Shown here piece by piece: positions 31,013 through 56,318 of a stretch of DNA of 64,000 nucleotides (position 1 is its first letter; every line of letters starts with the position of its first letter). This DNA is from a bacterium. Lineage in GTDB: Bacteria > RUG730 > JBDRED01 > JBHPKP01. The DNA lies in the NCBI GenBank assembly GCA_042566505.1, contig JBHPKP010000002.1:14848-78847 (forward strand), in the 5' to 3' direction. A model generated the notes under the pieces. The model was not told the DNA's origin and made no database searches. It was given only the letters and a program-made list of their open reading frames with translations. The translations under genes were made by a program, and so were the position numbers.

Positions 31013-32017
31013 TTATCCTTTGCTTTCATCAATCAAAAATTTTCTCTTAATAATTGCCCAATTATTTACTATTTCTTGCTCGGTAATTTCACCATTGTAA
31101 ATCAATACTTCTCTTATTTCTCCATTAAATTTTCGATTATGCCCAAACCAATTACCTATATAAAAATCACTAGCTGAATTCACTAAATTCCCCAAAGTCT
31201 TTTGAGCTGATATCAAACTTGCATTCAAATATATTCTGGTATAAGCTTCATTAAAAATAATAACTAAATAATTCCAAGTATCACTTTTTAATTGAAAATG
31301 TTTACTCACATACCACTTCAGCCCATCACCATAAAAGAAAGTATAATAATTACTTTCTTTATTATCTTTTTCTATGGTTATACCGTAAAAATCTTTATGA
31401 TTTGAGACAATATCAGCAAAATCTACTTGTAAAGGAGCGGGCTTCAGAACACATTGGATCACAAATGCATTATCAAATTGCAAAACTCCTTTGTTCAAAA
31501 TATAATTATCTTTTGCAATTTGTTTAATTCCCGTATGAACCAAAGGAACATTTCTCGACTTTAATATAAATCCTCCTGTCCTTTCAGGGGCACCTGAAAA
31601 ATAATAATATATTTTATCATTGACTGCTTCATTACTCATACTCGAAGGGATACATATTAAAGTTATGAACAAAGAAACCACTACCAAAGTTCCTAAAACA
31701 AAAAAAATGTTCTTTTGTAATACATTTAATAAAAATTTTACCTTCTTTTGCACATTATTTGTTATAAAAAAGATTAGAATGATTGCTGTAAAGGTAAGTA
31801 TTAATGAAAACAATATACTATGAATTAAGTGATTAGTAATTATTGCAAAATAATTTATAAAGAAAAGCCCCAGAATAAAACTAATCAACATAACTATCTT
31901 AGGGTAATTAGTAATTTTCTTTTTACAAAAGCTTGTTAGCAATGATACCCCAAAAAGCAACGAACCAATAAGAACAACAGAAAAAACAATTAAAACATAG
32001 ATAAATCTAATTAACAT
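31013..32017 (-). CDS. Membrane-anchored (4 TM) LamG/concanavalin-A-like lectin-domain protein
   Basis: The N-terminal ~125 aa are hydrophobic. The C-terminus ends FYIGNWFGHNRKFNGEIREVLIYNGEITEQEI, matching the LamG_3 signature (F.G.IDEVRIYN..L...EI). Confidence 0.6.
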   Translation of the reverse strand: MLIRFIYVLIVFSVVLIGSLLFGVSLLTSFCKKKITNYPKIVMLISFILGLFFINYFAIITNHLIHSILFSLILTFTAIILIFFITNNVQKKVKFLLNVLQKNIFFVLGTLVVVSLFITLICIPSSMSNEAVNDKIYYYFSGAPERTGGFILKSRNVPLVHTGIKQIAKDNYILNKGVLQFDNAFVIQCVLKPAPLQVDFADIVSNHKDFYGITIEKDNKESNYYTFFYGDGLKWYVSKHFQLKSDTWNYLVIIFNEAYTRIYLNASLISAQKTLGNLVNSASDFYIGNWFGHNRKFNGEIREVLIYNGEITEQEIVNNWAIIKRKFLIDESKG

Positions 32018-34652
32018 AAGACCCTCCTCGTATATAATTTTTTTTAATATAATATAAAATCAGAACAAAATACAAAGTAAAATAAATCAATAACATAAAA
32101 TTGAAAAAAGAAAGAAGTCCATTTGAGTACTTTAATAATATCTTATACTTTCCCTGATGGAGTGTAAAGTTTAGCAGATTTTCTGTATCTTCTGAAATAA
32201 ACCTTTTACCGTTTATAAATACTTTAATATTTTTTATAGGAAAAAGCTGATAATAAATATTTATAGGATTTTTGTCAACAGTAACATCAAAACTAACTCG
32301 CTTAGAATAATCCGTATAAAAATTATTTAATGTCATATTGGAAATATCTCCTACGATTTTAATTATTCCATTATCAAATACTTTCTCCGTATCCTCATTT
32401 ATATTCCAGGTACGTTTGATTCGAACTGTTCCTTTTGTATTTTTCAAGTAGCGTCTCCAACCATCCGGAAGGCTCTCTAGTGAAGTATAATTATTATCAA
32501 ATTCTATTAATGCTATAGGAATGTATTTAATATTATTATTTAGGTCATATCCTCGTATATAAAGATTTTTTATCATTACATCTTCATCACTATTTTTTTC
32601 AATTACCAGATCAATACTATCCATATCAAATTCAGTAGTAAAATTAAATTTTATAAAAGCAGAAGACGGGCCAGTCTTCACTTCATATTCTTTTCCATGT
32701 ATTGTAATTGTAAGAATCGTTTCCTTTTGAGAAGATGTTTCCAAAGCAAAAAGATATTTATTAGGTTTAAAAGACCTAGTCATTGGTTTTAGACGATACA
32801 TTCTACTACCATCATACAATTTATAATTCAAATTTTTATCAATAAACATATCTAAATATATTTTATGTTTCTCATATGTTTTATTGTCACAGATAACAAA
32901 ATCCACTCCTGTTTTCCATAACCATTCAAAATTTATTCTTTCATAAAAAGGAAATTTTTCTCTATATCGCAAGTCAGAAGCTAAATGCAGTTCATAACCT
33001 AAATAGTTAGATAATTTTATCTCTTTTTGAACCATCCATGGATAATTTCTCGGGATATAAACATTGCGTGGATTTGGCATGAGGTTTACATATTTGATAA
33101 GTTCCTTTTGTGAATTAGTTTTAATAAAATTTATCATACCTTTTTCATCATCTTTATGTAGATATATATAGTCCTTTGCATAAACATGATTAGCATCTGT
33201 ATATGCATAAAAATAGGTTGTATTAAGAATAAAAATCAATACTATTCCTACATAAAATATCCATTTTCTTGATAATTTCAAATATGCTATGAAAAAGAAC
33301 ATTAGAAATAAAATTTCAACAAGCACGGTATTAAACCTAATCAAGTGTAAACTAGCTGTATTCCCTAAATAAATAAATATATTTAAAAATAGAAATAATA
33401 TCACAGACAGTATAATAAGAACTTTTCCAATTCTATAATCCTTTTTCTTTAATGCGCTAGAAAATAAAATAGTCACTAACAATGAAAAAAATACATTCGT
33501 AATAAGCATGTATCTTGCATACAAATGCATACCACCAAGCCCCGGAACTAACGAATAAAAAACACTACTTAAACCAAACATATCACCGAACGATATCAAA
33601 AATGAAATAAGAACAATAGGCAGTATAATAGCAATGAGCCTTTTCTGAAATGAACGCAGCTTACCTTTATTACTATTAGAAAAAACATAAATAAAAATAG
33701 CAACAATAGGAATCAGCCCTATATACAAAGTAGTTATTTCGATCTCTTTTATTCTAAAAATACCGTATGAAAAAATCGTTAACAAATCTGAAAGCTGCAA
33801 ACAAACAGAATGCGCAATTGTTTTTATATCAGCTGGCATTGTTGATGCAATTTTATGATACTTTAATATTGCAAAATAAAAAGGTCCAACAACAACAGAT
33901 GCTATGCCTACAGGTATAAATAATCGCACTAAACCAGGCAATGATTTTTTTACATATCCCTTTTTGTTAATATAAATATGATATAAACTCACAAAAATTA
34001 TAGTTATTACAACAGATGCTAAAGCTAATGGAATATACCCAGTCAAAAACATCAAAACATAAACACCTGAAATAAAAAATAATGATATTCGATTTTTAAT
34101 TGATAATGAACTAAGTGATACATACATAAGCAGCGGAATGAGCATGACCATATAATAGAATGGAGGAAATTGTTTAGCAGTCATAGTTTTGGAAGAAAAA
34201 ACAAGAAAAACAGCAAAAAAAAGTGATGCAACAGTAGAAAATCTAAAAAACTTTTTTGCCAGTATCTGAGCAAAAAACATAGCTATACTTGCATGAAAAA
34301 ATATAATAAAAAGCATTAATAGGAAAAATCCTTCAATACCACGAATATTTGTTAGAAAAGATATTAAAAAATATATTGGGTAAGCGGTTACGATATTTGG
34401 ACGCAAAAAGAATTCAGAAGAACCATTTGCAGTAAAAAAATCTATACCGGAAAAAATAATATTTTTGGAAGAAAAATAACTATGCATAAATTGTGGAACG
34501 TACAAACATAATTCATCAATAAAATAATAATACAATCTTTCATTCCCTTTTCCAAATACTCTTAAATATGGAGCATAATAAAAAAATGGAAACAAAAATG
34601 ATGCACTCAACTGAAAATAATATTTTTTCCAAAATCGAATAAGGCTTTTCAT
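32007..34652 (-). CDS. Large polytopic membrane protein, YfhO-like/GT-C candidate (tandem paralogue B, 881 aa)
   Basis: About 14 TM segments followed by a ~400-aa soluble C-terminal domain. It is colinear with 34649..37312 from the N-terminus (YLRVFGKGNERLYYYFIDELCLYVPQF) to the C-terminus (YQLFPIKNIKVFINGKRF). The YfhO assignment rests on size and topology only. Confidence 0.45.
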   Translation of the reverse strand: MKSLIRFWKKYYFQLSASFLFPFFYYAPYLRVFGKGNERLYYYFIDELCLYVPQFMHSYFSSKNIIFSGIDFFTANGSSEFFLRPNIVTAYPIYFLISFLTNIRGIEGFFLLMLFIIFFHASIAMFFAQILAKKFFRFSTVASLFFAVFLVFSSKTMTAKQFPPFYYMVMLIPLLMYVSLSSLSIKNRISLFFISGVYVLMFLTGYIPLALASVVITIIFVSLYHIYINKKGYVKKSLPGLVRLFIPVGIASVVVGPFYFAILKYHKIASTMPADIKTIAHSVCLQLSDLLTIFSYGIFRIKEIEITTLYIGLIPIVAIFIYVFSNSNKGKLRSFQKRLIAIILPIVLISFLISFGDMFGLSSVFYSLVPGLGGMHLYARYMLITNVFFSLLVTILFSSALKKKDYRIGKVLIILSVILFLFLNIFIYLGNTASLHLIRFNTVLVEILFLMFFFIAYLKLSRKWIFYVGIVLIFILNTTYFYAYTDANHVYAKDYIYLHKDDEKGMINFIKTNSQKELIKYVNLMPNPRNVYIPRNYPWMVQKEIKLSNYLGYELHLASDLRYREKFPFYERINFEWLWKTGVDFVICDNKTYEKHKIYLDMFIDKNLNYKLYDGSRMYRLKPMTRSFKPNKYLFALETSSQKETILTITIHGKEYEVKTGPSSAFIKFNFTTEFDMDSIDLVIEKNSDEDVMIKNLYIRGYDLNNNIKYIPIALIEFDNNYTSLESLPDGWRRYLKNTKGTVRIKRTWNINEDTEKVFDNGIIKIVGDISNMTLNNFYTDYSKRVSFDVTVDKNPINIYYQLFPIKNIKVFINGKRFISEDTENLLNFTLHQGKYKILLKYSNGLLSFFNFMLLIYFTLYFVLILYYIKKNYIRGGSYVN

Positions 34653-37312
34653 AAAATCCCTTTTTTATTTTCTCTTATGAACTTAATTAGCCGAGATATA
34701 CCAATCCACAACAAACAAGTTATATATAAAAAAAACATTGTATTAAACAAAGCAAGTAAAGAATGCTTATAAACAATCTTCACCTTATGTTCTCCTTTTG
34801 GAACTACAAACTCTAATAAGTCTTCATTAATTTTATACGAAACTTTTTTCCCATCAATATAAACACGAATATTTTTTATCGGAAAAAGTTGGTAAGTTAT
34901 TTTTAACGATTTTTCACTTTGCGTATTGAATTTAACCTTTTTTGCATAATCAGTGTAAAAATTACTTATTGCATTATCCGGACATTTTTCAATTTTAATA
35001 ATACCATTATCAAAGCCCACTTGTGTTTTCACTATTCCTATATCACTCGTTCTGAAAATATTGACAATGCCTTTTTGTCCAATTAAAAATCTCCTCCAGC
35101 CATTTTTTAAAGATTCAAAATTACTAAATCTATTATCAAAATCGATTTTTTTTATTGGAATCCATTTATGCTCATATTCACCTAAGAAAATATTTTTTAT
35201 CATTAAATTTTCCAGGTTATTTCTATCTACTTCCAGTTCCATGGATTCAACGTCATCTTTTATCTCAAATGGTATACCTACAACATTTCCAAGTTTTTTA
35301 ATTTCTACTTCATAACTTTTAGAATCAATAGTAATAAAGATTATACCGTCCTTATCAGCAGAAGTTGTAAAACGAAGAAAATAAGAACCTTTGCTAAAAC
35401 CATCTTTTAAATTTATTTTTTTTGTTTTATATATTTTCGTGCTGTCTTGTAATTGATAATAAACATCTTTATCAATATATTTATTAATTAATTTTTCATA
35501 TTTCCTATCGGTTGTCTCATCAACAATTATAAAATCACAGCCTGTTTTTAAAAGCCAATTAAAATTAATATTTCCATAGTATGGCATTCTTTCTCTATAC
35601 CCCAAATAAGATGCGAGATGTAATTCATATCCATAATAATTTGAAACTCTAAACTTATTTTGCACTAACCAAGGAAAATTTCTTGGAACAAAAGAATAAA
35701 CCTCTTTAGAAGTATTGACATATTTAGGTAATGCTTTATCAGTATTTTTATCAATAAAATCGATCAATCCGTGTACCTTTTCTTGATGCAAAATAATATT
35801 ATCTTTTGATTGATAATACACTCTATTTGAATCCATAATAAAGAAAGCATAAGTAGTATTAATTATAAAAACCGCACCTATAATAGAAAACATTACATAC
35901 CTGCGACTTGCTTTAATATACATAACCAAGAAAAACATAAATAGAATTAATTCCCCAATAATAAGTCTCATATTAATTAAATACGTTAACGGTGACCAAA
36001 TTTTCATGTGAATCATATATTGATAAATCCACATAAAAACCAGCAACAAAAAACTCAAAATCAATGCTATTTTGGCAAAATTTAACGCCCTTTTTTTTAC
36101 AAGAATATCTAATATAATCGTAATAAATAAAAAGAAGAAAATATTTGTAAGCATCATATATCTACCATACTCGTGCATCCCACCAAGACCCGGAACCAGA
36201 GTATAAAAAATATCTGCCAATCCAATATTCAATCCAAAAGAAATCAAAAATGAAAAAATAAAAATTAGTAATCCAATAATAATAAGTCGCTTATTTAGTG
36301 AGCTTAGCTTCATATTTTTTTTAGAGCTGATTACAAAAGCAAAGATTAAACTTAATGGAATTAACCCAACATATAATGTTCCGACACCATTTGTTTTGAT
36401 ATTTTTAATACCATATGAAATCATTGTTAAAATATCTGAAGGTGAAAATGCCAAATCTCGAGCAATTGTTCTCAAATTGGCACTTACAGTTGAGGCTAGT
36501 CCATGATAGCTCATTACAGCCAAATAAAATGGCACAGCAACGATAGAAGCAATAGCCACAGGTATAATCAGTTGTATAATGCCTTTCAAAGCTTTTCTCC
36601 AATAACCATCATTATTTATGTATACATGGTAAAAAACCGCAAACAATATGGCTATTATTACTCCTCCCACAGCCATAGGAATATACCCGCTTAAGAATGC
36701 TAATAAATAAACAAATGAAAATATAATTAATGATTTTTTGTTCTTAGATTCCAAAGAAAGCATTGCAGTATATATAAGCAATGGCATGAGCATAACAATG
36801 TAAAAAAATGGAGGAAATGGTTTGGCAAAAATAGTTTTGGATGAAAATATCACAAAAACCGCAAATAATAGAGCTAATAATTTTTCAAATTTAAAAAACC
36901 TCAATGCTAAAAGCTGTGAGAAAAACATTCCTAGAATCATATGTGCAAACATAATGATTAATAAAACTAATGCAAGGGTTTCGATACTTGTAATTTTTAG
37001 AATATAAGAAACACAAAATGATAGATAATAAACAGGATATGCAGCAACAATATTTGGTCTTAAGAAAAATAACGATGAACCATTCGCAGTCAAAAAATCT
37101 GTGCCGGAAAAAATCATATTCTTAAAAAGAAAATAGCTGTTTATAAATTGAGGAAGATAAAGATTGAGTTCATCAAGAAAAAAATAATGAAACCTATCAG
37201 ACCCTTTACCAAATACCTTTAGGTATGGTGAGAAAAAAAGAAAAGGAAAAATAACCGATGTAGTTATTTGAAATAAATATTTTTTAATAAATTGAACAAA
37301 GTGAAATCGCAT
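34649..37312 (-). CDS. Large polytopic membrane protein, YfhO-like/GT-C candidate (tandem paralogue A, 887 aa)
   Basis: Paralogue of 32007..34652 (YLKVFGKGSDRFHYFFLDELNLYLPQF ... YQLFPIKNIRVYIDGKKV). It joins the downstream copy through an ATGA overlap. Confidence 0.45.
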   Translation of the reverse strand: MRFHFVQFIKKYLFQITTSVIFPFLFFSPYLKVFGKGSDRFHYFFLDELNLYLPQFINSYFLFKNMIFSGTDFLTANGSSLFFLRPNIVAAYPVYYLSFCVSYILKITSIETLALVLLIIMFAHMILGMFFSQLLALRFFKFEKLLALLFAVFVIFSSKTIFAKPFPPFFYIVMLMPLLIYTAMLSLESKNKKSLIIFSFVYLLAFLSGYIPMAVGGVIIAILFAVFYHVYINNDGYWRKALKGIIQLIIPVAIASIVAVPFYLAVMSYHGLASTVSANLRTIARDLAFSPSDILTMISYGIKNIKTNGVGTLYVGLIPLSLIFAFVISSKKNMKLSSLNKRLIIIGLLIFIFSFLISFGLNIGLADIFYTLVPGLGGMHEYGRYMMLTNIFFFLFITIILDILVKKRALNFAKIALILSFLLLVFMWIYQYMIHMKIWSPLTYLINMRLIIGELILFMFFLVMYIKASRRYVMFSIIGAVFIINTTYAFFIMDSNRVYYQSKDNIILHQEKVHGLIDFIDKNTDKALPKYVNTSKEVYSFVPRNFPWLVQNKFRVSNYYGYELHLASYLGYRERMPYYGNINFNWLLKTGCDFIIVDETTDRKYEKLINKYIDKDVYYQLQDSTKIYKTKKINLKDGFSKGSYFLRFTTSADKDGIIFITIDSKSYEVEIKKLGNVVGIPFEIKDDVESMELEVDRNNLENLMIKNIFLGEYEHKWIPIKKIDFDNRFSNFESLKNGWRRFLIGQKGIVNIFRTSDIGIVKTQVGFDNGIIKIEKCPDNAISNFYTDYAKKVKFNTQSEKSLKITYQLFPIKNIRVYIDGKKVSYKINEDLLEFVVPKGEHKVKIVYKHSLLALFNTMFFLYITCLLWIGISRLIKFIRENKKGIL

Positions 37313-37316
37313 AATT

Positions 37317-38012
37317 TTAAACTCCTAAGATAGAGTTAATTCCCAAGACATATTTTGATACTTTAGAAGGAGAAACCGCAAGTGTTTGCATAACATTTTC
37401 TGCTAAATACAAATCTTCTGCTGCAAACTTAAATTCCATAATAACAATATCAGGCGCTATATTTTTGTACTTTTTATTTGCGTGTTTTAGAAACCTTTGA
37501 TCATAAAAAGATATGTCTTTATCGAGAGTAATCCTAATTTTATTATTATATGAAACAAAATAATCACGCGCATAACTATTAATTAACACCGGAATATTGC
37601 TCATTAAAAATCGCTGCTTTAGTCCATCATGCAATTGGTCAATAATATCATTTCTAATTTCAGACAGTGAAATATCACTAAGATTTTCAGAAAACTTAAC
37701 AGCTTGCGAAGACTTCCAACCCAATCGGTTCCTCTTAATTTTCAGCTCTAATACAAAATCTTTTAATGCTATACTTTCACCATACCAACGCAGTCTAAAT
37801 TTAGTTCTTGAAGATTTACCTGATAAGTTTTCCCAATACGAATCTAAATCAATCGTATCATAATAAATATTATTAACAATTCTAGGAGGATATGCTTTTT
37901 TAAACATCATTTCTTGAGTATATATCCAAGTTTTAAGATGATTGTACATATTCACATTTGTAACAAATTTTATTTCACACCTGGCTTTCTCTAACACATC
38001 TGATTTAATCAT
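37317..38012 (-). CDS. VTC-domain (polyphosphate-polymerase-like, triphosphate-tunnel fold) protein
   Basis: 231 aa with no TM segment. Contains ARCEIKF, IVNNIYYDTIDLDSYWENLSGKSSRTKFRLRWYG and VLELKIKRNRLGWKS. This is the pattern of bacterial VTC proteins (ExK; Y.V.S.YFDT; R.K.R.R.Y; lE.K). It overlaps the CotH gene by 4 nt. Confidence 0.72.
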   Translation of the reverse strand: MIKSDVLEKARCEIKFVTNVNMYNHLKTWIYTQEMMFKKAYPPRIVNNIYYDTIDLDSYWENLSGKSSRTKFRLRWYGESIALKDFVLELKIKRNRLGWKSSQAVKFSENLSDISLSEIRNDIIDQLHDGLKQRFLMSNIPVLINSYARDYFVSYNNKIRITLDKDISFYDQRFLKHANKKYKNIAPDIVIMEFKFAAEDLYLAENVMQTLAVSPSKVSKYVLGINSILGV

Positions 38013-40741
38013 TTTCTCATATACCCTTCTTTATACAATTTATCAATATTCACTTTCTGTGTTTTAATTCTCTTACTATCTAATATAATTCTACTTCTTT
38101 TCTGAGCAACGATTGCATTTTTCGAGTCTTGAAATGTAATATCACCTGCAATGATTTTCCCGCCGCCATATTCCGGTTTTTTCATATATGCCATAAGAAC
38201 GGAATGTTCAACATTTTCAAATATTCCATTTTTAAGATATGTTGTTGATCCATCCTTGCTGGCTACTCCTGTCCCAACTTTGTCCGCATGTACATTTTCT
38301 ACATTCAAAACTGTTCCTTCTCCTGCAGAAATAGCCTTATCATGGATATTTGTAAACTTACAATCTTTAACTTTCACATCAGAACCACTAAAATCAACTG
38401 CGTCTCCACCTATATCTTTAAATAAGCAATCCTTAATTAAACCTTCTGAAAAATCGCTATCAAATGCATCTGATTTAGATTTTTTTATCTCCACAGAATC
38501 CATATTAAATTTACTATTAGCAATATTAAGTGCATCCTCCGCAATAGTTCTATCAAAAGTAACATTTTGTAAATCTACATCTGATTTATAAAATGTTACA
38601 GCTCCTGTAATCTCCCAACCATTATATCTTGGAAAATTTGTGTTTTTAATAATAACGTTTTTTAATAGAGACTTTTGTCCACTTGAATAATAATTAGCAT
38701 TTATGACCGCTATGCCCTTCCAAGAATCATCTTTACTCGATGTAATTGACTCTAAAATAATAGGATTTTTTTTCTTACCCTTGCAATACAGATTTCCATA
38801 AATAATAAATCCTGCATCCTTTCTAAATTTTAATATTGTTCCGGACTCTATCTTTATACTCATACCTTCAGGAAATATAATCATATCTTTTATTTCCCAT
38901 TTTCCTTTTTTTATTACCAATTCATTCTCCGTATCAACTGATAATTGTAAAAATACATTTTCATTCAATAATTTTTCTAAACTTTCCGAAGCTATGGGAT
39001 GCTTTTCTAAAGTTGGAAAGTAGTGTAATGCCTGAAATTCATAATTAATATGTTGACTCACAGGACTCGCAATACCCGATATTTCAACTTTGTCATCTAG
39101 CTTAATATTACTAAGTCCCATTCGTACTAAATTCGGAGCTTTTATAGTAAAAGTTGGAGGTAAAGATATTGGTAAACTTTTAGTTAAAATCTCAGAAGTT
39201 TTTTTCTCTATTCCATTTATTTTTATATTTAACGACTTAATAATTATTTTTTCAGATAGTATATTGCTAAATTCAAGATATGAACTATTATCCTCTTTTA
39301 AAATATATGCATACACAATTGCAGGTAATTTAACATTATCTTTATATTTTGCTGCCTTTGACATGGTTCTCTCACGAAGTTCCGGCTTTAAAAAATACCT
39401 ATCCGTCATAATCTTGTTAATATTTTTTTGTAAATAATTTTTCATACCTTTAAAATACATTTCCGGTAAAGCAAAAAACTCCTGTCGTAAAATTTTTAAG
39501 TATTCCCTTTCCTTCTTTTGAATTTGCAATAAAAAGCTATTCTCTTCAATATTTAACATTTCACTATTCAGCTGAAATATATACTCTTTAAATCTGTTAT
39601 AAATCTTATTGTCTTGCAGCATCAGACTCACTATTTCCAAATTTCTTGAAACAGTTGCAGAAGCTAAAGCAAGTTTTATTTGTCCGTTAAAATCGAATAC
39701 AATTGGTTCTAATTTCAAAGTAATCGGATTAAGATAAAATCTAAGATTTATCGACATTATTGTATGATTTGCTTCAAAAAATGTTAAAAGCGCTAAATAT
39801 GCAGCTGTTTTATCAATATCAAAAACTTCTGAAGCTTTTAATCTTCCCTGCATAACACTTCGGATAAGTCCTATTCCGATTTCTTTTTGTTTTGACAATG
39901 CTTTAGATTTAGCTATTTTTTTTGATTTGTATGCGCGAATCGGAACATTCAATCCATTTAAATACATTGATGTAGGAATTGTCTCATCTTTCCCAACCCA
40001 ACCGAATTTCAGAACTGCTTTCCAAAAATCATTTTCATAAAATTTAAAAATTACACCTTCTTTTCTGCCCTGCGATTCAAGCAACTCCTTAGAAAAATGT
40101 TCCTCTAATGCCATAATCCCTATTGATTCCCCATTTATTGACACATCTATAAAGAAATATCTGAGCCTTAGCACATCAAATAATGTACATGCATAGGATA
40201 AAACCGCTTCATATTGATAGCCTCTAACCTTTGGATGCTGAATAGAAAAGTTGCGCATATGAAATAGAGTTTTTCCCTTTTTCACATTGATCCTGAATGA
40301 CCATTTTTTAGGATCATCTCGATGATCTCCTTGATCACCTTTGAGTCTCATCTCAGCTTTTACAGTTTTACCTTTATGCTGCACTGTAACCGGCACATAA
40401 TCTTTTCCACTTGCATATAAATTTGTGCCCATCGCATCCAAACGTCTTTTTTTTATTTTTTCCCAAGACTGAAAATCAACATTAATGTTTATTTTTTCAA
40501 TGACTATTTTTCCTAAAAGTGAAGAAAGTCGGGCAGCTAAAGTTTCAAATACTGCTTTTTTATATATTTTTTTATAGGTTGTTGTGTCTTTATTAACATC
40601 ATATCGACTCATCATGCCATAGTATTTGTTCTTTCTGTAAATCTCTTTAATATCTTTTTCATTAACTTTATCGAATTTATTTAAATAAATTTTAGCAAAT
40701 AATATTAATCCAATAATTAGTAAAAAAATATATAAAACCAA
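38009..40741 (-). CDS. Membrane-anchored CotH-kinase-like protein with C-terminal right-handed beta-helix (PbH1) repeats
   Basis: 910 aa with a TTG start. There is one N-terminal TM (VLYIFLLIIGLILFAKIYL). The central region NFSIQHPKVRGYQYEAVLSYACTLFDVLRLRYFFIDVSINGESIGIMALEEHFSKELLE fits the CotH-family core. The last ~280 aa carry repeated xxDAxDxSxS/V-x-V-x-N units (DALNIANS, DAFDSDFS, DAVDFSGS, KAISAGEG) typical of parallel beta-helices. Confidence 0.6.
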   Translation of the reverse strand: MVLYIFLLIIGLILFAKIYLNKFDKVNEKDIKEIYRKNKYYGMMSRYDVNKDTTTYKKIYKKAVFETLAARLSSLLGKIVIEKININVDFQSWEKIKKRRLDAMGTNLYASGKDYVPVTVQHKGKTVKAEMRLKGDQGDHRDDPKKWSFRINVKKGKTLFHMRNFSIQHPKVRGYQYEAVLSYACTLFDVLRLRYFFIDVSINGESIGIMALEEHFSKELLESQGRKEGVIFKFYENDFWKAVLKFGWVGKDETIPTSMYLNGLNVPIRAYKSKKIAKSKALSKQKEIGIGLIRSVMQGRLKASEVFDIDKTAAYLALLTFFEANHTIMSINLRFYLNPITLKLEPIVFDFNGQIKLALASATVSRNLEIVSLMLQDNKIYNRFKEYIFQLNSEMLNIEENSFLLQIQKKEREYLKILRQEFFALPEMYFKGMKNYLQKNINKIMTDRYFLKPELRERTMSKAAKYKDNVKLPAIVYAYILKEDNSSYLEFSNILSEKIIIKSLNIKINGIEKKTSEILTKSLPISLPPTFTIKAPNLVRMGLSNIKLDDKVEISGIASPVSQHINYEFQALHYFPTLEKHPIASESLEKLLNENVFLQLSVDTENELVIKKGKWEIKDMIIFPEGMSIKIESGTILKFRKDAGFIIYGNLYCKGKKKNPIILESITSSKDDSWKGIAVINANYYSSGQKSLLKNVIIKNTNFPRYNGWEITGAVTFYKSDVDLQNVTFDRTIAEDALNIANSKFNMDSVEIKKSKSDAFDSDFSEGLIKDCLFKDIGGDAVDFSGSDVKVKDCKFTNIHDKAISAGEGTVLNVENVHADKVGTGVASKDGSTTYLKNGIFENVEHSVLMAYMKKPEYGGGKIIAGDITFQDSKNAIVAQKRSRIILDSKRIKTQKVNIDKLYKEGYMRK

Positions 40742-40800
40742 TATCTCTTTTTTAAAAATGATTTTTGTACTTTTTTATCTATAATAACCATCATAACCTA

Positions 40801-41733
40801 CTATTTTTCTTTTTCTTTATATCCTCTGGGATAAAACCATTTACTATTGTAAGGAAGGGATAAGGTTTTCACAATTACATTAAAACTATTGTCTTTGACT
40901 TCAATGATGTTATAAGAAAGAAGAGGTGAGCCTGCTGTTGTAAGAAATCGCGGACACGTACCAAATGAATTTCGATAATAAGGAATGCCATCAACTTCAG
41001 CATAAGCATTTGGTCCAAAAGCACTCCAATCACCACCAAATATTGCAGAAATTTTACCTTTGGTTAATTCTCTCACTTTATCATTCCATATCTTTGAATG
41101 ACGCCTCTTATCTTCATGAAATTCTTCTAAACTTTTATATTCATATTTATCATATACGCCACCCTCTATACCAATAACATCTAAGTTATGATGCATAAAA
41201 ATAAATCGTAATTTTTTATCATCCTTCGTATCAGGAATTTCATCTAATAGAGCAATGCTGTCTTTATCTAAACCATTTCCTTGAATAGTTCGCCACCAAT
41301 CGTATTCCATATTGGCGCCTTTCACTGTATTCAACAAATACAATTCAGAGAACCCTAAATCAACTATTTTTGATGTGTATCCAACATTTTTCATCCAATT
41401 TTCTTCTGCATTTTCACCTGACTCACGCTGCAAGTCATGATTACCCGTAACAAAATATTTTTTCATCTTTAATTTTGACAATATTTTTTCATCAAAATTC
41501 TTCCAATCAGTCATTGTCCCATAAGCAGTAATATCACCCATAAATACGATTGCATCAGCATTGCTTTTATTCATCTCTTCAACAAAAATTTCCTGAATAT
41601 CCGGAAAATTTTGAATACTATAAAAATGCCCAACCGCTATTATCCGGTTCACTTTTCCTTTAAAAATACCGCAACTCGAAAACAACACCATTAAGAAAAG
41701 TATACTAATTAGAAAACTGGTTCTTTTTTTCAT
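40801..41733 (-). CDS. Exported (lipoprotein) calcineurin-like metallophosphoesterase
   Basis: MKKRTSFLISILFLMVLFSSC is a signal peptide with a lipobox-like Cys. Also contains VGHFY, MGDITAYG, TGNHDL and MHHN metallophosphoesterase motifs. ATG at 41733 has GGAG 7 nt upstream; the track start at 41751 is less likely. Confidence 0.7.
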   Translation of the reverse strand: MKKRTSFLISILFLMVLFSSCGIFKGKVNRIIAVGHFYSIQNFPDIQEIFVEEMNKSNADAIVFMGDITAYGTMTDWKNFDEKILSKLKMKKYFVTGNHDLQRESGENAEENWMKNVGYTSKIVDLGFSELYLLNTVKGANMEYDWWRTIQGNGLDKDSIALLDEIPDTKDDKKLRFIFMHHNLDVIGIEGGVYDKYEYKSLEEFHEDKRRHSKIWNDKVRELTKGKISAIFGGDWSAFGPNAYAEVDGIPYYRNSFGTCPRFLTTAGSPLLSYNIIEVKDNSFNVIVKTLSLPYNSKWFYPRGYKEKEK

Positions 41734-41788
41734 ATTAACTCCATTTAACATTTATTTTTATTTAGTAAAGCAAAAAGGCAAAAAGCAC

Positions 41789-42463
41789 TCAAACTCCAGG
41801 TATACGACTTTGATCAATAAATGAAACTTCAACCTTTGCATGTTTCTCTTTAATGTGGTCAACCAATCGAAAGACTTTATTTGAATCATCTATATTGATC
41901 ATATACATCACATGTACAGAATCTTGACTGGAATCTAGCCGCTTCATATCGCAAAGGTCTGTATAGTCAGAAATTATATTGCTTATTTCCTCTGCTGAAA
42001 TTGTTTTTTCTTTATGGTCCCAAGTCAATGATACATACAAATCTTTATTATCATATTTATTAAATTTCCACTTTAAAACAGCAATAACCGTTAAAATAAA
42101 CAAACTTGAAACAACAGTGAGTAAAGTCTGATTTGCGCCCAACCCTAATCCAATTGCAATTGCCATAAAAATATACACCAACTCTTCCGGTTCTTTAATA
42201 GGTGTACGAAATCTAACAATTGATAATGCACCCACTAAACCCAAAGATAATGCTAATGACGACTTAACAACCGAGATAATCAAACAAATAATAAGTACCA
42301 AAAAAGGGAAAATTCTTGATATTTCCTTTTTTCCGGACAATGTTGATGAAAACCTTTCGAAATGATACTTAAGCACCATAGAAAGAACTGTCCCCACTAA
42401 TAAATTAATAAGAATCGTTTGAATAGCTAATGGATCTTCCGTAAAAGTAAATAAATTGTTCAT
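41789..42463 (-). CDS. DUF4956-family integral membrane protein
   Basis: Four TM segments. SLALSLGLVGALSIVRFRTPIKEPEELVYIFMAIAIGLGLGAN is the hallmark DUF4956 block (SIVRFRT.IK.P). There is a ~95-aa soluble C-terminal domain. Confidence 0.7.
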   Translation of the reverse strand: MNNLFTFTEDPLAIQTILINLLVGTVLSMVLKYHFERFSSTLSGKKEISRIFPFLVLIICLIISVVKSSLALSLGLVGALSIVRFRTPIKEPEELVYIFMAIAIGLGLGANQTLLTVVSSLFILTVIAVLKWKFNKYDNKDLYVSLTWDHKEKTISAEEISNIISDYTDLCDMKRLDSSQDSVHVMYMINIDDSNKVFRLVDHIKEKHAKVEVSFIDQSRIPGV

Positions 42464-42525
42464 TTTCTTCTCCTTTTTAAATTTTTTTTATTCAATCTCT
42501 ATTTTCAATTTTAAAATTAACAAAA

Positions 42526-42531
42526 ATTATA
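42526..42531 (-). promoter_or_regulatory. Perfect TATAAT -10 box in the 130-nt gap upstream of the DUF4956 gene
   Basis: The minus strand reads ...TTTAGT-ttacataaaaagatttg-TATAAT..., about 60 nt upstream of the ATG at 42463. The -35 element is weak. Motif only. Confidence 0.25.
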
Positions 42532-42593
42532 CAAATCTTTTTATGTAAACTAAAAGTATTGATCTATTAAAAAAACTAGTATCCATTATTATT

Positions 42594-44912
42594 TTATTTT
42601 AGTTTTAGTGTTTTTTTAATTATTTCCCAATTTTTATTTATTTGCTTTTCATCTAAGACCCCATTAATAATTAAAATTTCCAATATTTCCCCATTAAAAT
42701 CCCTGTTATTTGTTGCACCAGATGCACCTATATAAAGCATTTTATCTGAGTTTTGTACAAATCTATCACTTTTGCTTACAGCTATCTTTTCTCCATTATG
42801 ATAAATAGTCATCATTTTATCTTGTACAGTAATCGTTAAATAATTCCAAACATTACTCATTAATTCAAAACTTGGACTTATTATCCATCCACCACCCATG
42901 CCTTGATAAAATAAATAATTAGAATTATTTTTTCCATTCCCTTCTATTGCTATCCCTTTGTGATCAAAATGATTTGATAATATATCTGCATACGGAACCT
43001 GTTTACTACCTGGTTTTACAATAATTTGAATATTAAAATTATTTTCTAATTTCAATTTATCCTCAACTACTATAAAATTATCTTTGAAATTTCCGGTAAA
43101 TCCTGTATGCAGCACTATTTGATCTTGTGTAGTTAAGATAAAATCTTCGACCTTTTTTTTATGCACATTTGAATACTTATTCAGAAGTTTAGAAGTTACT
43201 TCTACATTTCTACCTACATATCCCGATACTCTGGTAATGACATTAAGTGTTTTCCCTTGTATTAAATAGCGCGGACTCACAGATAATGATAAACTCATAA
43301 TGGGACCTATTGTCATAATCCCAACAATAAAAAAAATAATAATTTTCATAGCTTTTTTTGATGTAGTATTATTAAATATTTTTGATAAAGCTAAAATCAA
43401 GCATAATACTCCTAAAAAATTACCACTCATTAAGAATCTACTAAGTTCCCATTTATGATTTGTAATTGCAATAAAAAAATTTATACTAAAACCTATAATA
43501 AAAACTCCAGATGAAAATAATAAAAGAAACTTCTCTTGAATTATTTTCTTATTATCAAGTATTTTTAACTTTTCGTAACTTTTTGTAAAAAGCAGTAAAA
43601 ACATTAGTATAAAACCCAAAACTGGCCAAAAAGTTAATCTAAGTGCTTCCCAAAGATTTTTTTCGAAACCAACGATAAATTCATAAAAAAATGAATCCAC
43701 ATTTTTAACTTTTGATATATCAACTCTATGATAATTACGTTCCCACTTTCTACCAAATCCTGTATGATGAACAAATGCCGGATTAAATGAAACAATCTTT
43801 GATAAAGTACTCACTACCTTATGCACTCCCTCTAATTGCAATCTGTCTTGTTTGTTATCTAGAGTTAGCATACCACCTTGAAATATGCCTATTGATACAG
43901 CAATAAAAAACAAGATACTAACAATAGTAATTTTAGTCATATATTTAAATTTTCTAATAAAAGCAAAAAATAGAATAATCAAAAATAAAGGTATCACAAG
44001 TACAATATTTTGTGCTCCACAAAGATTCCAACTTATACCGATTGATAAAGCCGCTAATACATTAACGAATAAAGAAATATTCTTTTCAGAGAAGCATGAC
44101 TTAATCCAAAATAGAAAAAAGAAAAAACTTCCTATTGCAAAAATTGAATCTGTATATCCATTGAAAGCAAGTGGATTCATCGAATCAAGAACAAGTATAT
44201 GACCCAGAGTCAATGCAGTATTACCAACCATTAAAACAAATACTCCTAAAATAGCTGAAAAAATATTAAGTTTAAAATATCTTAAAACTCCATAACTTAA
44301 AAAAATCAAAAAACTAATTGAAAAAATTAACCAAATAGTTAAATTCAGAAAAGGTGTTTTAATACCAAAAAACAAGGGAATAGATGATAAAATAGATTGT
44401 CCAAAACTTTGTCCAAGTATAGGTATTCTATTACTTTCTACAATATATGTTATGATATTAACATGTCTCCCAGAATTTATCGTACCTATATCATGATAAG
44501 CACTTGTATAAACATCTGCTATAGAAAAACTCCCCATCCACTTCAATGCAACTATACTTGCAACTAAAATAAAAATTATTAAAATTATCCATTTATATTT
44601 ATTTATTGTATTAATAACTTCCTGAATCAATTCAGTACTTCTTTCTTTTTTAAATAATACAATCGATATTATCATTAAAAATATATTTGTAATGTAAAAA
44701 GAAAATATTGCATTCCCAAGAACAAAAGATGTTAGTCTCCACAATGAAAGCAATAAAGCAATACCAGCAAAATAACTAAGTCCCAAAAACAACGGCATTA
44801 CTCTGTTTTTTTTATCTGTATATAAAAGTTGAATAATTGATACACCATAAAAAATAACCATGCTTACAACAACTGAAATACTCAGTACTGCACTAAACAA
44901 TGGCAACCACAT
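42594..44912 (-). CDS. Polytopic membrane protein (~14 TM) with C-terminal LamG/ConA-like lectin domain
   Basis: 772 aa. The C-terminal ~190 aa are colinear with the C-terminus of 31013..32017 (ADILSNHFDHKGIAIEG...WNYLTITV...RDFNGEILEILIINGVLDEKQI). Confidence 0.55.
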   Translation of the reverse strand: MWLPLFSAVLSISVVVSMVIFYGVSIIQLLYTDKKNRVMPLFLGLSYFAGIALLLSLWRLTSFVLGNAIFSFYITNIFLMIISIVLFKKERSTELIQEVINTINKYKWIILIIFILVASIVALKWMGSFSIADVYTSAYHDIGTINSGRHVNIITYIVESNRIPILGQSFGQSILSSIPLFFGIKTPFLNLTIWLIFSISFLIFLSYGVLRYFKLNIFSAILGVFVLMVGNTALTLGHILVLDSMNPLAFNGYTDSIFAIGSFFFFLFWIKSCFSEKNISLFVNVLAALSIGISWNLCGAQNIVLVIPLFLIILFFAFIRKFKYMTKITIVSILFFIAVSIGIFQGGMLTLDNKQDRLQLEGVHKVVSTLSKIVSFNPAFVHHTGFGRKWERNYHRVDISKVKNVDSFFYEFIVGFEKNLWEALRLTFWPVLGFILMFLLLFTKSYEKLKILDNKKIIQEKFLLLFSSGVFIIGFSINFFIAITNHKWELSRFLMSGNFLGVLCLILALSKIFNNTTSKKAMKIIIFFIVGIMTIGPIMSLSLSVSPRYLIQGKTLNVITRVSGYVGRNVEVTSKLLNKYSNVHKKKVEDFILTTQDQIVLHTGFTGNFKDNFIVVEDKLKLENNFNIQIIVKPGSKQVPYADILSNHFDHKGIAIEGNGKNNSNYLFYQGMGGGWIISPSFELMSNVWNYLTITVQDKMMTIYHNGEKIAVSKSDRFVQNSDKMLYIGASGATNNRDFNGEILEILIINGVLDEKQINKNWEIIKKTLKLK

Positions 44913-51052: not shown

Positions 51053-52570
51053 TCATCTTATCTTTTTACTTCTGTGAAACAAAAAATACTTAAAAAAGAA
51101 GGACATTGGCGCATTAGCATGAGCCTTAATATTTAAAAATCCTTCTGTAATTTTCCAGATTAATCTATAAATAAAATTATCTGGCAACTTAATTAATTTT
51201 TTAATAAACGATCGCAATACTGGAAAACGTATAGCCAAATGTGAAAATCTTGAAAGACGAACTAATAACTCACCTTCATGATCTACACGATAATTCTGAT
51301 AAAAACACATGTCCTTATATCCAATCCCCATATTCTCTTCTTTATTTCTTTTATGTTCTATTGAAACAACCTCATTTTGCTTCATTGCAGAAGGTTTGTC
51401 GTAAAGGGCAACATCTTCTTTACGATATTGTCCAAGATTTATACCGTGTTCTGTTATATCTAATCCTGGAAATGGTTTAAAAATATTTATAGCATGCACA
51501 CTATCTTTTGCAGATAGCTCACTAGCAAATTTTATAGTATCCCAAGCAAGTTCCAAAGTCTCTCCAGGAAGACCAAACATCATAGACATAGAATATCTGA
51601 TATTATATTTTCTCATCATCTCAGCACCCTGCCGCCATTGATCATTGGTAATATTTTTATTTAAAACTTTCTTACGAAATTCTTCATTTCCAGTCTCTAA
51701 TCCTAAACGAACTAAAGTACAACACTTTGTATCCGCTATAGCTTTACAAACATCCTCGTTCATCTCTGTAATAACAGCATTAATTGAAAATGGAATACTA
51801 ATTTTTTCTTTGTAAACTTTCAGAAAATCAAATATCCAACTTTTATTGTAAGTAAGTGTACTATCATTGAAAAAAATATATCTACTATTATACTTATTTT
51901 TTAAAAGTAATAATTCCTCAATAACATGTTCAACACTCCTTAGACAGCAATACTGTTTACTTCCCTCCTCCTGATATATCTTACGATAACCATGATTAAA
52001 GCAATAGCTGCACAAATAAGGACAACCCCTGCCTACAAGTACTTGTGTAAAAGGAATTATTTTGAAATAACTATCATAATCAAAGTATAAATCCCTATCA
52101 TCAAAAGGATAATCATCCGGATTAGTAACCCATTCTCGCATTTTATTTTTGTAAAGCTTATCTCCTTTTTTTACCCACAAATTAGCAATATGCGTATAAT
52201 CACGCTTTTCATCTATACAGTCACAAAGTTCGGCTAAAGCCTCTTCTCCTTCTCCACGACAAATAATATCAACATCAGAATGTTCAATTAAGTATGGTGT
52301 AAATGTTATATCATACCCGCCTGCAATTATAGGAGTTTCAATATCTGCATCACGTATAGCCTTTATTGCTTCGAGCATGTGGTTACGATAAGGGGTTAAA
52401 ACCGAAAAAGCAATTAAATCAGGTCTTTGTTCCTTAAGTTCTTTAACAACTTTCTTATTATCACCAATACTCAAACCTACTTTGTGCCCTCGTCTTTTTA
52501 AATATGCTGACAATCTTGCTGTACTTTGAAAAGGAAAATATATATCCTGAATAAACGTAACTTTTGCCAT
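51053..52570 (-). CDS. Cobalamin-binding-domain radical SAM enzyme (class B rSAM)
   Basis: The N-terminal B12-binding-like Rossmann domain reads LSAYLKRRGHKVGL...DLIAFSVLTP...IIAGGYDITF. The radical SAM cluster motif is GRGCPYLCSYCFN (CxxxCxxC). 505 aa. Confidence 0.8.
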   Translation of the reverse strand: MAKVTFIQDIYFPFQSTARLSAYLKRRGHKVGLSIGDNKKVVKELKEQRPDLIAFSVLTPYRNHMLEAIKAIRDADIETPIIAGGYDITFTPYLIEHSDVDIICRGEGEEALAELCDCIDEKRDYTHIANLWVKKGDKLYKNKMREWVTNPDDYPFDDRDLYFDYDSYFKIIPFTQVLVGRGCPYLCSYCFNHGYRKIYQEEGSKQYCCLRSVEHVIEELLLLKNKYNSRYIFFNDSTLTYNKSWIFDFLKVYKEKISIPFSINAVITEMNEDVCKAIADTKCCTLVRLGLETGNEEFRKKVLNKNITNDQWRQGAEMMRKYNIRYSMSMMFGLPGETLELAWDTIKFASELSAKDSVHAINIFKPFPGLDITEHGINLGQYRKEDVALYDKPSAMKQNEVVSIEHKRNKEENMGIGYKDMCFYQNYRVDHEGELLVRLSRFSHLAIRFPVLRSFIKKLIKLPDNFIYRLIWKITEGFLNIKAHANAPMSFFFKYFLFHRSKKIR

Positions 52571-55037: not shown

Positions 55038-55064
55038 TAAACTTACCTTCTAGATTTATTCCTT

Positions 55065-55445
55065 TTAATTTTTATCAATTTTCTTAAATAAACTTTTCTC
55101 ATATATATCCTTCTCATCACCTTTTACAACACCTTTATCATAAAAAGCAATAATATAGGTATCTTCGGTATAATTAAAAGTGTGCACAACATTCGGCTCT
55201 ACAACAAACATATCACCTGATTTGATATTAAAATTTTTTGTAACTTCATCTTTTTCTAAAACTAATTCAAAAGCGCCTTGAATCACATAAAACATTTCTG
55301 TATTGTTTTTATGATAGTGTCCACCTCTATTTGTCCCTTTCTCAGAAAAGATAACATTTGTCTGATTCCAACCACTGCTAACTAACTGTTTTAAATACCC
55401 TCTATCATCTGTATGCTCAAATTCAGGTTTTACAAAAGTAATCAT
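55065..55445 (-). CDS. Cupin-fold sugar-nucleotide isomerase/epimerase-like protein (WxcM/FdtA-like)
   Basis: 126 aa. Contains DDRGYLKQL...NRGGHYHKNNTEMFYVIQG...VVEPNVVH, a cupin two-His motif. Confidence 0.55.
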   Translation of the reverse strand: MITFVKPEFEHTDDRGYLKQLVSSGWNQTNVIFSEKGTNRGGHYHKNNTEMFYVIQGAFELVLEKDEVTKNFNIKSGDMFVVEPNVVHTFNYTEDTYIIAFYDKGVVKGDEKDIYEKSLFKKIDKN

Positions 55446-55455
55446 ATTAACACCT

Positions 55456-55513
55456 TATATTCATTTTGAATTTTCTCATAATCCTCAGGCACGCCTATAT
55501 CAATAAAATAGCT
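55456..55513. repeat. Direct repeat copy A (relic 3' end of the HddC-like gene)
   Basis: Identical at 56 of 58 positions to 56381..56438. Read on the minus strand it encodes SYFIDIGVPEDYEKIQNEY, then KVLI and a TGA that overlaps the cupin ATG. Confidence 0.9.
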
Positions 55514-55514
55514 T

Positions 55515-56318
55515 CTATTTTATCTGTTTTATATTTTTATCAATTGTTAATAATCTCATTTGCTGCACAGCAATTTGATTAAGTTTCAAGAGCCTTGTTT
55601 CTTGATTTAAACCTTCATCAATAAACAGAGCATTAATATTTTCAAGGTTTGAAAGGCAAACTAATTGTGAAATATCTGCATAATCTCTAATATTTCCTTT
55701 TTTGTCTGGATTTTTATCTCTCCAATCTTTCGCAGTTTCCCCAAATAAAGCCATATTTAAAACATCAGCTTCAGTTGCATAGACTAAAGAAATCTGTTTC
55801 TTACTAAGTTCTTTTGGAATTAAATTTTTCTTTATTGCATCTGTATGTATATTATAATTTATTTTAGCTAAGTTTCTTCTAATATCCCAGCCTAGTTGTT
55901 TCTTCTCATACTCTTTAAGTCTTTGAAACTCTTTTATTAGATAAAGTTTAAATTCAACAGAAATCCATGAAGCAAACTCAAAGGCAATATCTTTATGCGC
56001 ATAAGTTCCGCCATACCGTCCCGCTGCTGCTTTTAAACCAATCGCATTTGTTTTTTCAACCCATTCTTTTACACTTAATTTATAGCTATTTAAACCACTT
56101 TGACTTTTAATTATGGCAAATTCGCCATAATTAAAATTAGGATTAAAAATACTTTCCCAAACACCTAAAAATTCAACTGTATTTCTGTTTCTTAGCCAGT
56201 CAGATATAAAAAAATCACCATCTTTAGCTTTCAACATATCTGTAAGCGAAATATAATCATTGTTTTCACTAGACAGCACTGTAATCTCTTTACCTTGCAC
56301 TTCTATTTTTAACGTCAT
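55515..56318 (-). CDS. KilA-N domain-containing protein
   Basis: Contains YISLTDMLKAKDGDFFISDWLRNRNTVEFLGVWESIFNPNFNYGEF and AGRYGGTYAHKDIAFEFASWISVEFKLYLIKEFQRLKE, which are hallmark KilA-N family blocks. Confidence 0.85.
   Translation of the reverse strand: MTLKIEVQGKEITVLSSENNDYISLTDMLKAKDGDFFISDWLRNRNTVEFLGVWESIFNPNFNYGEFAIIKSQSGLNSYKLSVKEWVEKTNAIGLKAAAGRYGGTYAHKDIAFEFASWISVEFKLYLIKEFQRLKEYEKKQLGWDIRRNLAKINYNIHTDAIKKNLIPKELSKKQISLVYATEADVLNMALFGETAKDWRDKNPDKKGNIRDYADISQLVCLSNLENINALFIDEGLNQETRLLKLNQIAVQQMRLLTIDKNIKQIK

Follow-up and report, generated by a model that had tools for sequence, protein, structure and literature searches.

A conserved DUF4956, CotH/β-helix and VTC gene trio in a bacterial glycan locus: a possible membrane-spanning phosphate-polymer module

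In prokaryotes, the synthesis of polyphosphate (polyP) is ascribed to PPK1 and PPK2, and VTC is regarded as a eukaryotic system. In yeast, the VTC complex couples a triphosphate-tunnel (TTM) polymerase to a channel that presents basic rings at its cytoplasmic mouth (bioRxiv 10.1101/2023.01.27.525886). Genes for related proteins have been described in bacteria. Gram-positive pel operons are contiguous with accessory genes for CotH, a "polyphosphate polymerase" and DUF4956, as well as DUF4832 (Whitfield et al. 2020). A preprint on Streptococcus intermedius describes a secreted CotH protein with FN3 (SIR_1594), a VTC-like protein (SIR_1593) and an MgtC-like protein with four transmembrane (TM) helices and an ACT domain (SIR_1592), with function unassigned, and the NELoc-2 locus of Clostridium perfringens combines VTC, a membrane protein of 222–226 aa, CotH and a chitin-synthase-like glycosyltransferase (GT). 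The present report concerns a cassette of four genes on the minus strand of a 64-kb window (the whole stretch of 64,000 nucleotides that was analysed, taken from contig JBHPKP010000002.1), which encode a DUF4956 membrane protein, a metallophosphoesterase, a CotH-like/β-helix protein of 910 aa and a VTC protein.

The original prediction, made from the sequence of the window, was that VTC and DUF4956 make and export polyP or another phosphoryl donor, and that the two remaining proteins use or trim it outside the cell to modify the glycan built by the surrounding genes. The observation of the cassette is confirmed and this interpretation is partly supported. The trio of DUF4956, CotH and VTC had not gone unnoticed, since the three genes and their linkage to exopolysaccharide operons are already published for the Gram-positive pel operons with no function assigned. 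In agreement with the original prediction, the literature yielded no experimental function for the trio, nor any proposal that it serves in export. The reading preferred here, to which a probability of about 0.4 is attached, is that the cassette is a member of a conserved trio operon encoding a membrane-spanning phosphate-polymer module, joined in this genome by an accessory phosphoesterase.

The trio is found far beyond the window. The CotH/β-helix protein was used to scan 185,579 species-representative genomes, from which 491 relatives were confirmed and 80 loci were fetched; the presence of genes at these loci was judged by our own open reading frame (ORF) calls and by jackhmmer. Of 63 assessable loci, which represent more than 15 phyla, 55 have the complete trio in the order DUF4956, CotH/β-helix and VTC, and five have the CotH gene alone. 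Taken separately, the DUF4956 gene directly precedes CotH on the same strand at 52 of the 67 loci that could be assessed, and the VTC gene directly follows CotH at 55 of 71, most commonly with the same 4-nt overlap that is observed in the window. When sampling was performed independently from the DUF4956 side, all four homologues examined were accompanied by a gene for a ~900-aa CotH protein and then by a VTC gene. The carriers belong to the Elusimicrobiota, Alpha-, Gamma- and Deltaproteobacteria, Nitrospirota, Nitrospinota, Myxococcota, Planctomycetota, Chloroflexota, Latescibacterota, Poribacteria, Omnitrophota, Ignavibacteria, Clostridia and Acidimicrobiia, with a few archaeal metagenome-assembled genomes (MAGs); Moritella dasanensis, Moritella sp. 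PE36 and Ca. Uabimicrobium amorphum are among the carriers in culture. Since the same gene order recurs across phyla, the cassette is far beyond chance, and the trio is a widespread, conserved and tightly coupled three-gene operon. The cross-genome co-occurrence on which the original prediction depended is thereby borne out. Clustering of the flanking ORFs identified the metallophosphoesterase as the sole further recurrent family; three other apparently conserved neighbour families were antisense shadow ORFs and were ruled out.

The VTC protein is soluble and composed of a single domain, with neither TM helices nor SPX. It matches PF09359 with 101.5 bits (cut-off 23), and a family profile of 21 sequences matches the solved TTM domains of Vtc2 (E = 3e-10) and Vtc4 (E = 1.6e-8). 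When aligned with Vtc4, identical residues are found at K15 (Vtc4 K200), R73 (R264), R75 (R266), K91 (K281), Y147 (Y359), R149 (R361), E193 (E426) and S219 (S457). Further pairs are R11 (R196), R160 (R373) and K195 (K428), and K220 corresponds to K458 within an S-K-[YF] motif. The mapped tunnel residues, K220 included, are at least 95% conserved in 56 orthologues. In Vtc4, polyP synthesis depends critically on residues K200, R264, R266, K281, R361, K458, S457 and Y359, and E426 chelates Mn2+; of these, K458 alone is replaced in the inactive Vtc2 (by Ile) and Vtc3 (by Leu) (bioRxiv 10.1101/2023.01.27.525886). The published dead Vtc4 mutant is R264A/R266A/E426N. Since the critical residues are identical, including the one equivalent to K458, the VTC protein of the window is predicted to be catalytically intact and of the active, Vtc4 type, and both the family and the tunnel residues are as originally proposed. 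Like the eukaryotic VTC complex, the bacterial trio contains a homologous TTM tunnel domain with identical triphosphate- and Mn-binding residues, including the Vtc4-specific Lys, and the partner of this tunnel enzyme is a small, polytopic membrane protein whose predicted cytoplasmic face bears a basic cluster. Unlike the eukaryotic complex, the bacterial trio has a VTC protein that lacks SPX and a fused three-helix TM domain, its membrane protein is unrelated to the Vtc TM domains, and its obligatory third partner, the CotH/β-helix protein, has no eukaryotic counterpart.

The DUF4956 protein matches PF16316 with 58.3 bits (cut-off 30.6). The family comprises more than 8000 protein clusters, retains ~50–60% identity across phyla and has Gly-rich helices; a tblastn search of the plasmids in PLSDB produced no DUF4956 match. 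The SIVRFRTPIK block, noted in the original prediction, corresponds to residues 81–90 and is part of a signature of the TM3-loop, A71-LSLGLVGALSIVRFR-TPIK90 followed by EPEEL, in which the segment from A71 to K90 is invariant in 71 sequences. The family and the block were thus correctly recognized, but the description as a protein of four TM helices was not sufficient. In the predicted model (pLDDT = 77.6), five helices are followed at the C-terminus by a β-α-β-β-α-β domain that resembles ACT and covers approximately residues 140–217. Averaged over the family, the number of Lys and Arg residues (K/R) is 0.26 at the N-terminus, 3.5 in loop 1, 0.95 in the turn, 3.0 in loop 3, 0.05 in loop 4 and 3.2 after helix 5. 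These loop charges fit a topology with the N-terminus outside and the C-terminus inside, which would place R84, R86 and K90 on the cytoplasmic face and the C-terminal domain in the cytoplasm.

The 910-aa protein may be considered in terms of four domains: a TM helix (aa 2–24), a CotH kinase-like domain (~aa 80–470, nt 39332–40504), a β-sandwich (~aa 476–570) and a right-handed β-helix (~aa 598–895, nt 38057–38950). The N-terminal anchor and the β-helix agree with the original prediction, and in a direct scan the β-helix was the only domain found (PF13229, E = 5e-9; PF12708, E = 8e-7). The CotH-like core, in contrast, was not recovered directly. No Pfam match to CotH (PF08757) was obtained for the N-terminal 600 aa even at E ≤ 10, and a phmmer search of the 910-aa protein against the PDB sequences gave no CotH match. 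As a result, the assignment rests on the family profile and the model. The family consists of ~900-aa proteins (557 matches), the closest being an Elusimicrobiota MAG protein with 56% identity. PF08757 is matched by 12 of 14 sampled relatives (best 7e-13), and the family profile matches B. cereus CotH (PDB: 5JD9, E = 5.4e-7) over chain residues 24–330. An AlphaFold2 model calculated from a 105-sequence alignment (pLDDT = 92, pTM = 0.93) had 5JD9 and 5JDA as its top Foldseek matches (E = 7e-11 and 1e-10, TM-score 0.60 and 0.64 on the target). The next matches were β-helix glycan-active enzymes, namely GH87, isopullulanase and the PL6 and PL3 lyases, along with phage tailspikes and NosD. From the model, the 910-aa protein is predicted to have the CotH atypical kinase fold.

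The D228Q and D251A variants of B. subtilis CotH are catalytically dead (PMC7821199), and the two residues correspond to D224 and D247 of the B. cereus protein. In the window protein, D350 aligns with the metal-binding Asp (B. cereus D247) and is invariant, N332 aligns with the catalytic-loop Asn (B. cereus N229) with a conservation of 90% or more, and the motifs of the N-lobe are retained (RLKGD..DH..KWSF compared to YRGAH..KKSY). Five positions ahead of this Asn, the alignment of the clade is variable. The alignment of the catalytic loop identifies the CotH/β-helix clade as CotH-fold enzymes with a systematic Asp-to-His change. Since H326, N332 and D350 are nearly invariant, the domain is probably active, possibly by a different mechanism. 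With the Bacillus spore-coat Ser/Thr kinase (5JD9/5JDA), the window protein shares the predicted fold, the R/K-G, H and KxS motifs of the N-lobe, the Asn and the metal-binding Asp; it differs in having an invariant His in place of B. subtilis D228, within a loop that is one residue longer. Furthermore, Bacillus CotH is assembled in the mother-cell cytoplasm, whereas the window protein is predicted to be extracytoplasmic and has large C-terminal domains resembling those of glycan enzymes.

Two Chloroflexota loci (L048, 4202–5761; L049, 4458–6029) present a variation, in which a CotH-like paralogue of ~520 aa lies between DUF4956 and VTC and the full-length CotH/β-helix gene comes after VTC. The paralogues lack the His/Asp, the Asn and the metal-binding Asp and are apparent pseudokinases.

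The phosphoesterase matches PF00149 with 37 bits (cut-off 21.5). When compared to the DxH/GD/GNH[DE]/H/GHxH series, motif I is GHxY with the Asp lost, the GD, GNHD and later His are kept, and the last motif is GD. The same pattern is conserved in 21 neighbours from many phyla, and the neighbour at locus L083 matches a hidden Markov model of the subfamily with E = 3e-46. By its motifs, the protein appears to represent a divergent, dedicated subfamily that is conserved across phyla. The N-terminus, MKKRTSFLISILFLMVLFSS-C, contains a signal peptide ending ...LFSSC that is lipobox-like, and the protein is predicted to be exported and is possibly lipid-anchored. The family and signal peptide of the original prediction are retained; for the lipoprotein assignment, the nearest orthologue has a signal peptide without the Cys. 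The phosphoesterase gene occurs within 6 kb of the trio in 18 of 63 loci (~29%) and in variable positions, which makes it an accessory to the three genes. Small genes between DUF4956 and CotH at loci L084 and L085 were considered as divergent phosphoesterases and were ruled out. A phosphoesterase outside the cytoplasm is reminiscent of Ppn2, the vacuolar polyphosphatase of yeast, itself a metallophosphoesterase.

A single N-terminal TM helix is present in 70 of 73 members of the CotH family. The mean K/R count is 4.1 in the 15 residues before the helix and 1.9 after it, and the count before the helix is the higher one in 57 members, compared to 5 with the reverse. This bias indicates an N-in/C-out protein with a type-II anchor, the bulk of which would be extracytoplasmic. 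The phosphoesterases that are linked to the trio elsewhere also have signal- or lipoprotein-like N-termini. The originally predicted topology is therefore upheld, with VTC inside from its lack of a TM helix, and the CotH/β-helix protein and phosphoesterase outside from the K/R bias and the signal peptide. In a diderm such as Elusimicrobiota, the CotH/β-helix protein and the phosphoesterase would face the periplasm.

The trios of the pel operons and NELoc-2 contain the same three families in adjacent genes, with a secreted CotH, a cytoplasmic VTC and a membrane protein of four TM helices and ACT, and share the linkage to an exopolysaccharide synthase. Their CotH proteins are shorter, contain FN3 or else no additional domain, and are reported to retain the catalytic residues. 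In contrast, the CotH protein of the window-type trio is membrane-anchored, fused to a β-sandwich and a β-helix of ~300 aa, and has His for the catalytic Asp. The window-type trio occurs mainly in diderm and environmental phyla, has the order DUF4956, CotH, VTC, and is often accompanied by a dedicated metallophosphoesterase.

With an apparently intact VTC enzyme inside, a conserved DUF4956 protein bearing a basic cluster, exported enzymes and a strict, coupled gene order, a membrane-spanning module is the most economical reading. We infer that the Vtc4-type tunnel enzyme would make polyP or a short oligophosphate from nucleoside triphosphate at the cytoplasmic face of an oligomeric DUF4956. 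With its invariant R84, R86 and K90 and its Gly/Ala/Ser helices facing the cytoplasm, DUF4956 would conduct the chain across the inner membrane or hand it across. Outside, the anchored CotH-like/β-helix enzyme would take the chain, either using it as an ATP-independent phosphoryl donor or anchoring it, and the secreted metallophosphoesterase would trim it. The module appears to have been recruited into a glycan locus in the present genome, in the closest relative and in some others, and there the glycan may be the acceptor.

A number of observations weigh against such a module. Neither a Foldseek search with the DUF4956 model nor a profile search of the PDB sequences revealed any likeness to the TM domains of Vtc1, Vtc3 or Vtc4. 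As a result, DUF4956 as a homologue of the Vtc TM channel was ruled out, and the "split VTC" of the original prediction, in which tunnel domain and membrane partner became separate genes, is an analogy and not a homology. The C-terminal domain of DUF4956 alone gives weak matches to ACT, PII-like and MgtC C-terminal folds (for MgtC, PDB: 2LQJ, E = 0.02), and the protein has a sub-threshold match to MgtC (PF02308, 18.4 bits, cut-off 31.4). MgtC-type proteins are known regulators, not channels. Fusions of VTC with DUF4956 or of VTC with CotH were absent from the best 120 matches of either family and from 86 loci. Since DUF4956 is unlike the yeast channel and fusions are lacking, export is no more than plausible. 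As for the catalytic residues, those of the VTC tunnel are all kept, as are the Asn and metal-binding Asp of CotH; the catalytic Asp of CotH is lost, its column being occupied by a nearly invariant His (H326) clade-wide in a loop one residue longer than that of 5JD9. The CotH domain may therefore not be a conventional kinase, and we know of no kinase of CotH fold that has polyP as its donor. The literature searched contains no biochemical data for any bacterial VTC-only protein, and the authors of the S. intermedius preprint suppose that polyP stays cytoplasmic.

In its most specific form, the module would be a VTC-type polyP synthase-translocase of bacteria and some archaea. VTC would dock on an oligomeric DUF4956 conduit and push polyP out to the periplasm or cell surface, the His-variant CotH would use it as an ATP-independent donor to phosphorylate or polyphosphorylate envelope glycans or proteins, possibly via phospho-His, and the phosphoesterase would set the chain length. 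This version is speculative and rather unlikely.

Among the alternatives, the one that survives best is that the genes are co-regulated and the process is not vectorial, which is also unlikely. Here, a cytoplasmic VTC would make polyP or hydrolyse triphosphates, DUF4956 would serve as an MgtC-like regulator or anchor that senses a metabolite through the ACT domain, and the CotH/β-helix protein would act independently outside, as a kinase with another donor or as a β-helix lyase or hydrolase. All would belong to one programme, such as envelope remodelling or a phosphate/Mg2+ stress response. This explanation draws on the likeness of DUF4956 to MgtC. The MgtC/SapB proteins are similar in size, have four or five N-terminal TM helices and end in a cytoplasmic ACT-like domain; the sub-threshold Pfam match and the C-terminal fold, which resembles MgtC, ACT and PII, point in the same direction. 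However, the score is below the gathering threshold, the SIVRFRTPIK block is DUF4956's own, and to our knowledge MgtC is not found in operons with VTC or CotH. The unlikeness of DUF4956 to the VTC channel, the lack of fusions and the cytoplasmic polyP assumed in the streptococcal preprint are also consistent with co-regulation, as is the resemblance of the β-helix to glycan-cleaving enzymes such as GH87, PL6, PL3 and tailspikes, but where ATP is absent, an enzyme with a kinase fold requires some donor. A strict gene order with translational coupling in more than 15 phyla suggests a stoichiometric complex over mere co-regulation. The unusual conservation of DUF4956 around a basic motif predicted to face the cytoplasm, and the dedicated secreted phosphoesterase that accompanies the trio, likewise favor a membrane-spanning module.

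A second alternative is the model of the original prediction, in which the module phosphorylates, caps or anchors the surface glycan of the surrounding locus with polyP as the donor. Its premise is sound for the window, where all 52 ORFs of 150 aa or more lie on the minus strand, the GC content is ~29% and the GC skew is negative throughout. This co-directional locus of more than 64 kb is a genuine, very large glycan cluster: its genes encode several GT2 enzymes, one GT1/4 enzyme, GT-C proteins resembling ArnT/PMT, a MurJ-like flippase, DegT, nucleotide-sugar dehydratases and epimerases, NTP-transferases, Wzm/Wzt, a GHMP kinase and a UDP-Glc dehydrogenase. The nearest relative, an Elusimicrobiota MAG (L001) with 56–75% identity to the window, keeps the arrangement, with the order DUF4956, phosphoesterase, CotH, VTC, two multi-TM proteins of ~880 aa and LamG. 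Beyond this pair, at least one GT was found in 16 of the 36 loci of at least 18 kb, and at least three glycan-type genes in 10 (~28%). Wzy_C and an ATP-sulfurylase/APS kinase are neighbours of the trio at L083, Wzm/Wzt at L084 and a TagF-like protein at L086; the Gram-positive trios are found beside pel or GT2 synthase genes, and the β-helix is of a glycan-binding type. Most loci, however, have no nearby glycan genes. The trio of Moritella is located between recQ and uvrD, and that of Ca. Uabimicrobium is among unrelated genes. The link to glycan loci is thus recurrent but optional, and since the module is mostly outside glycan loci, modifying the surrounding glycan cannot be its general role. 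A near-identical architecture in unrelated contexts points to a substrate that is probably independent of context, and in diderms the enzymes would face the periplasm, not the cell surface. Taken together, this model is more doubtful than co-regulation.

Least probable is outside-in signalling, in which the CotH/β-helix protein would be a sensor or pseudokinase for a polyanionic ligand, DUF4956 its relay and the output of VTC a polyP stress signal: the loss of the canonical catalytic Asp, the degenerate CotH paralogues in the middle slot of the Chloroflexota loci and the regulatory-type ACT domain of DUF4956 are compatible with it, but the near invariance of H326, N332, D350 and the N-lobe motifs is typical of a selected active site, the secreted phosphoesterase would be left without a role, and no known signalling domain is present.

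The features of the cassette are presented in Table 1. The ORF calls on the window confirmed four consecutive genes on the minus strand behind a gap that contains a TATAAT, all as first described. The junction of the CotH and VTC genes is an ATGA that accounts for the predicted 4-nt overlap and suggests translational coupling. At the 3' end of the cassette there is neither a terminator nor a gap; the next gene begins 4 nt past the VTC stop, and the cassette is therefore part of a longer transcription unit. The window contains 170 copies of TATAAT where 175 ± 14 are expected, no -35 was found at the proper spacing from the copy in the gap, and promoter-like sites in the window are not enriched (41 compared to 36 ± 5). 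Since the motif occurs at chance frequency and has no spaced -35 or enrichment of sites to go with it, it says little and was dropped as evidence of a promoter. The intergenic region may, weakly, be an internal promoter.

Table 1. Features of the cassette in the 64-kb window.
Feature	Coordinates	Strand	Evidence
Intergenic region, 130 nt, 5' of the DUF4956 gene	42464..42593	-	TATAAT 42531-42526, GGAG 8 nt before ATG
DUF4956 membrane protein, 224 aa, first gene of the trio	41789..42463	-	PF16316 E=1e-15
Metallophosphoesterase, 316 aa	40801..41751	-	PF00149 E=6e-9
CotH/β-helix protein, 910 aa, TTG start	38009..40741	-	PF13229, PF12708, family profile, fold model
VTC protein, 231 aa	37317..38012	-	PF09359 E=7e-29

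Several genes near the cassette are of interest in their own right. A tandem pair of paralogues of 881 and 887 aa (32007–37312), which are 46.6% identical over 869 aa, are predicted to have ~12 TM helices plus a C-terminal TM helix and have no Pfam match. Outside the window the pair was found in the Elusimicrobiota relative L001 only, and it was ruled out as part of the module. Laminin_G_3 (concanavalin-like) proteins flank the cassette region on both sides (31013–32017 and 42594–44912), and one of them begins with a fused 14-TM domain that matches no Pfam family. Between 44929 and 51039, there are two Zn-dependent alcohol dehydrogenases, two nucleotidyltransferases of the IspD/MobA type, a ribulose-phosphate 3-epimerase and a xylose-isomerase-like TIM-barrel protein. 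From this TarI/TarJ-like set of epimerase, alcohol dehydrogenases and cytidylyltransferases, which would make CDP-ribitol or another CDP-alditol, the glycan of the locus may already hold phosphodiester-linked alditols. A B12-binding radical SAM enzyme follows at 51053–52570. The sole large intergenic gap of the window (~477 nt) and a gene for a KilA-N domain protein after it occupy 55038–56318, and the KilA-N protein, which is unusual for a glycan operon, may be a mobile-element remnant. Lastly, a DHQ-synthase-like enzyme, an SDR, an aldolase of the HpcH/HpaI type and a TPP-dependent enzyme are encoded in a row at 15959–20397, which suggests the synthesis of an unusual branched or carbocyclic sugar.

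The neighbours of the trio at other loci provide some additional observations. In both Moritella loci (L067, 13058–15235; L079, 13055–15232), the end of VTC is overlapped by an ORF of 725 aa whose N-terminus resembles a signal peptide. The product matches no Pfam family and may be a fourth component specific to this lineage. An inorganic pyrophosphatase is encoded directly upstream of DUF4956 at L085 (4302–4925). At L086 (9162–10415 and 1047–3293), the gene for a PLD-like (PLDc_2) protein overlaps VTC at its end, and a GT2 + TagF-type glycerophosphotransferase is encoded upstream. The neighbours at L085 and L086 point to phosphoanhydride or phosphodiester chemistry. A single-cell contig of Nanoarchaeota (L078, 9009–18963) contains two complete, convergent trios. 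The several trios in archaeal-labelled MAGs reflect either transfer or binning contamination.

If the trio is indeed a VTC-type polyP synthase-translocase, prokaryotes would have a third route to polyP in addition to PPK1 and PPK2, and a currency of energy or phosphoryl groups would be available in an ATP-free compartment. An apparently intact Vtc4-type enzyme within an operon, in at least 491 species-representative genomes for this clade, would make this an unrecognised and widespread phosphate pathway. It would bear on how polyP reaches the periplasm or the cell surface, on what donor serves secreted CotH-type kinases without ATP, and on the role of the accessory genes of pel operons and NELoc-2. 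With Moritella, streptococci and C. perfringens among the cultured carriers, the trio may be approached in organisms that are available in culture.

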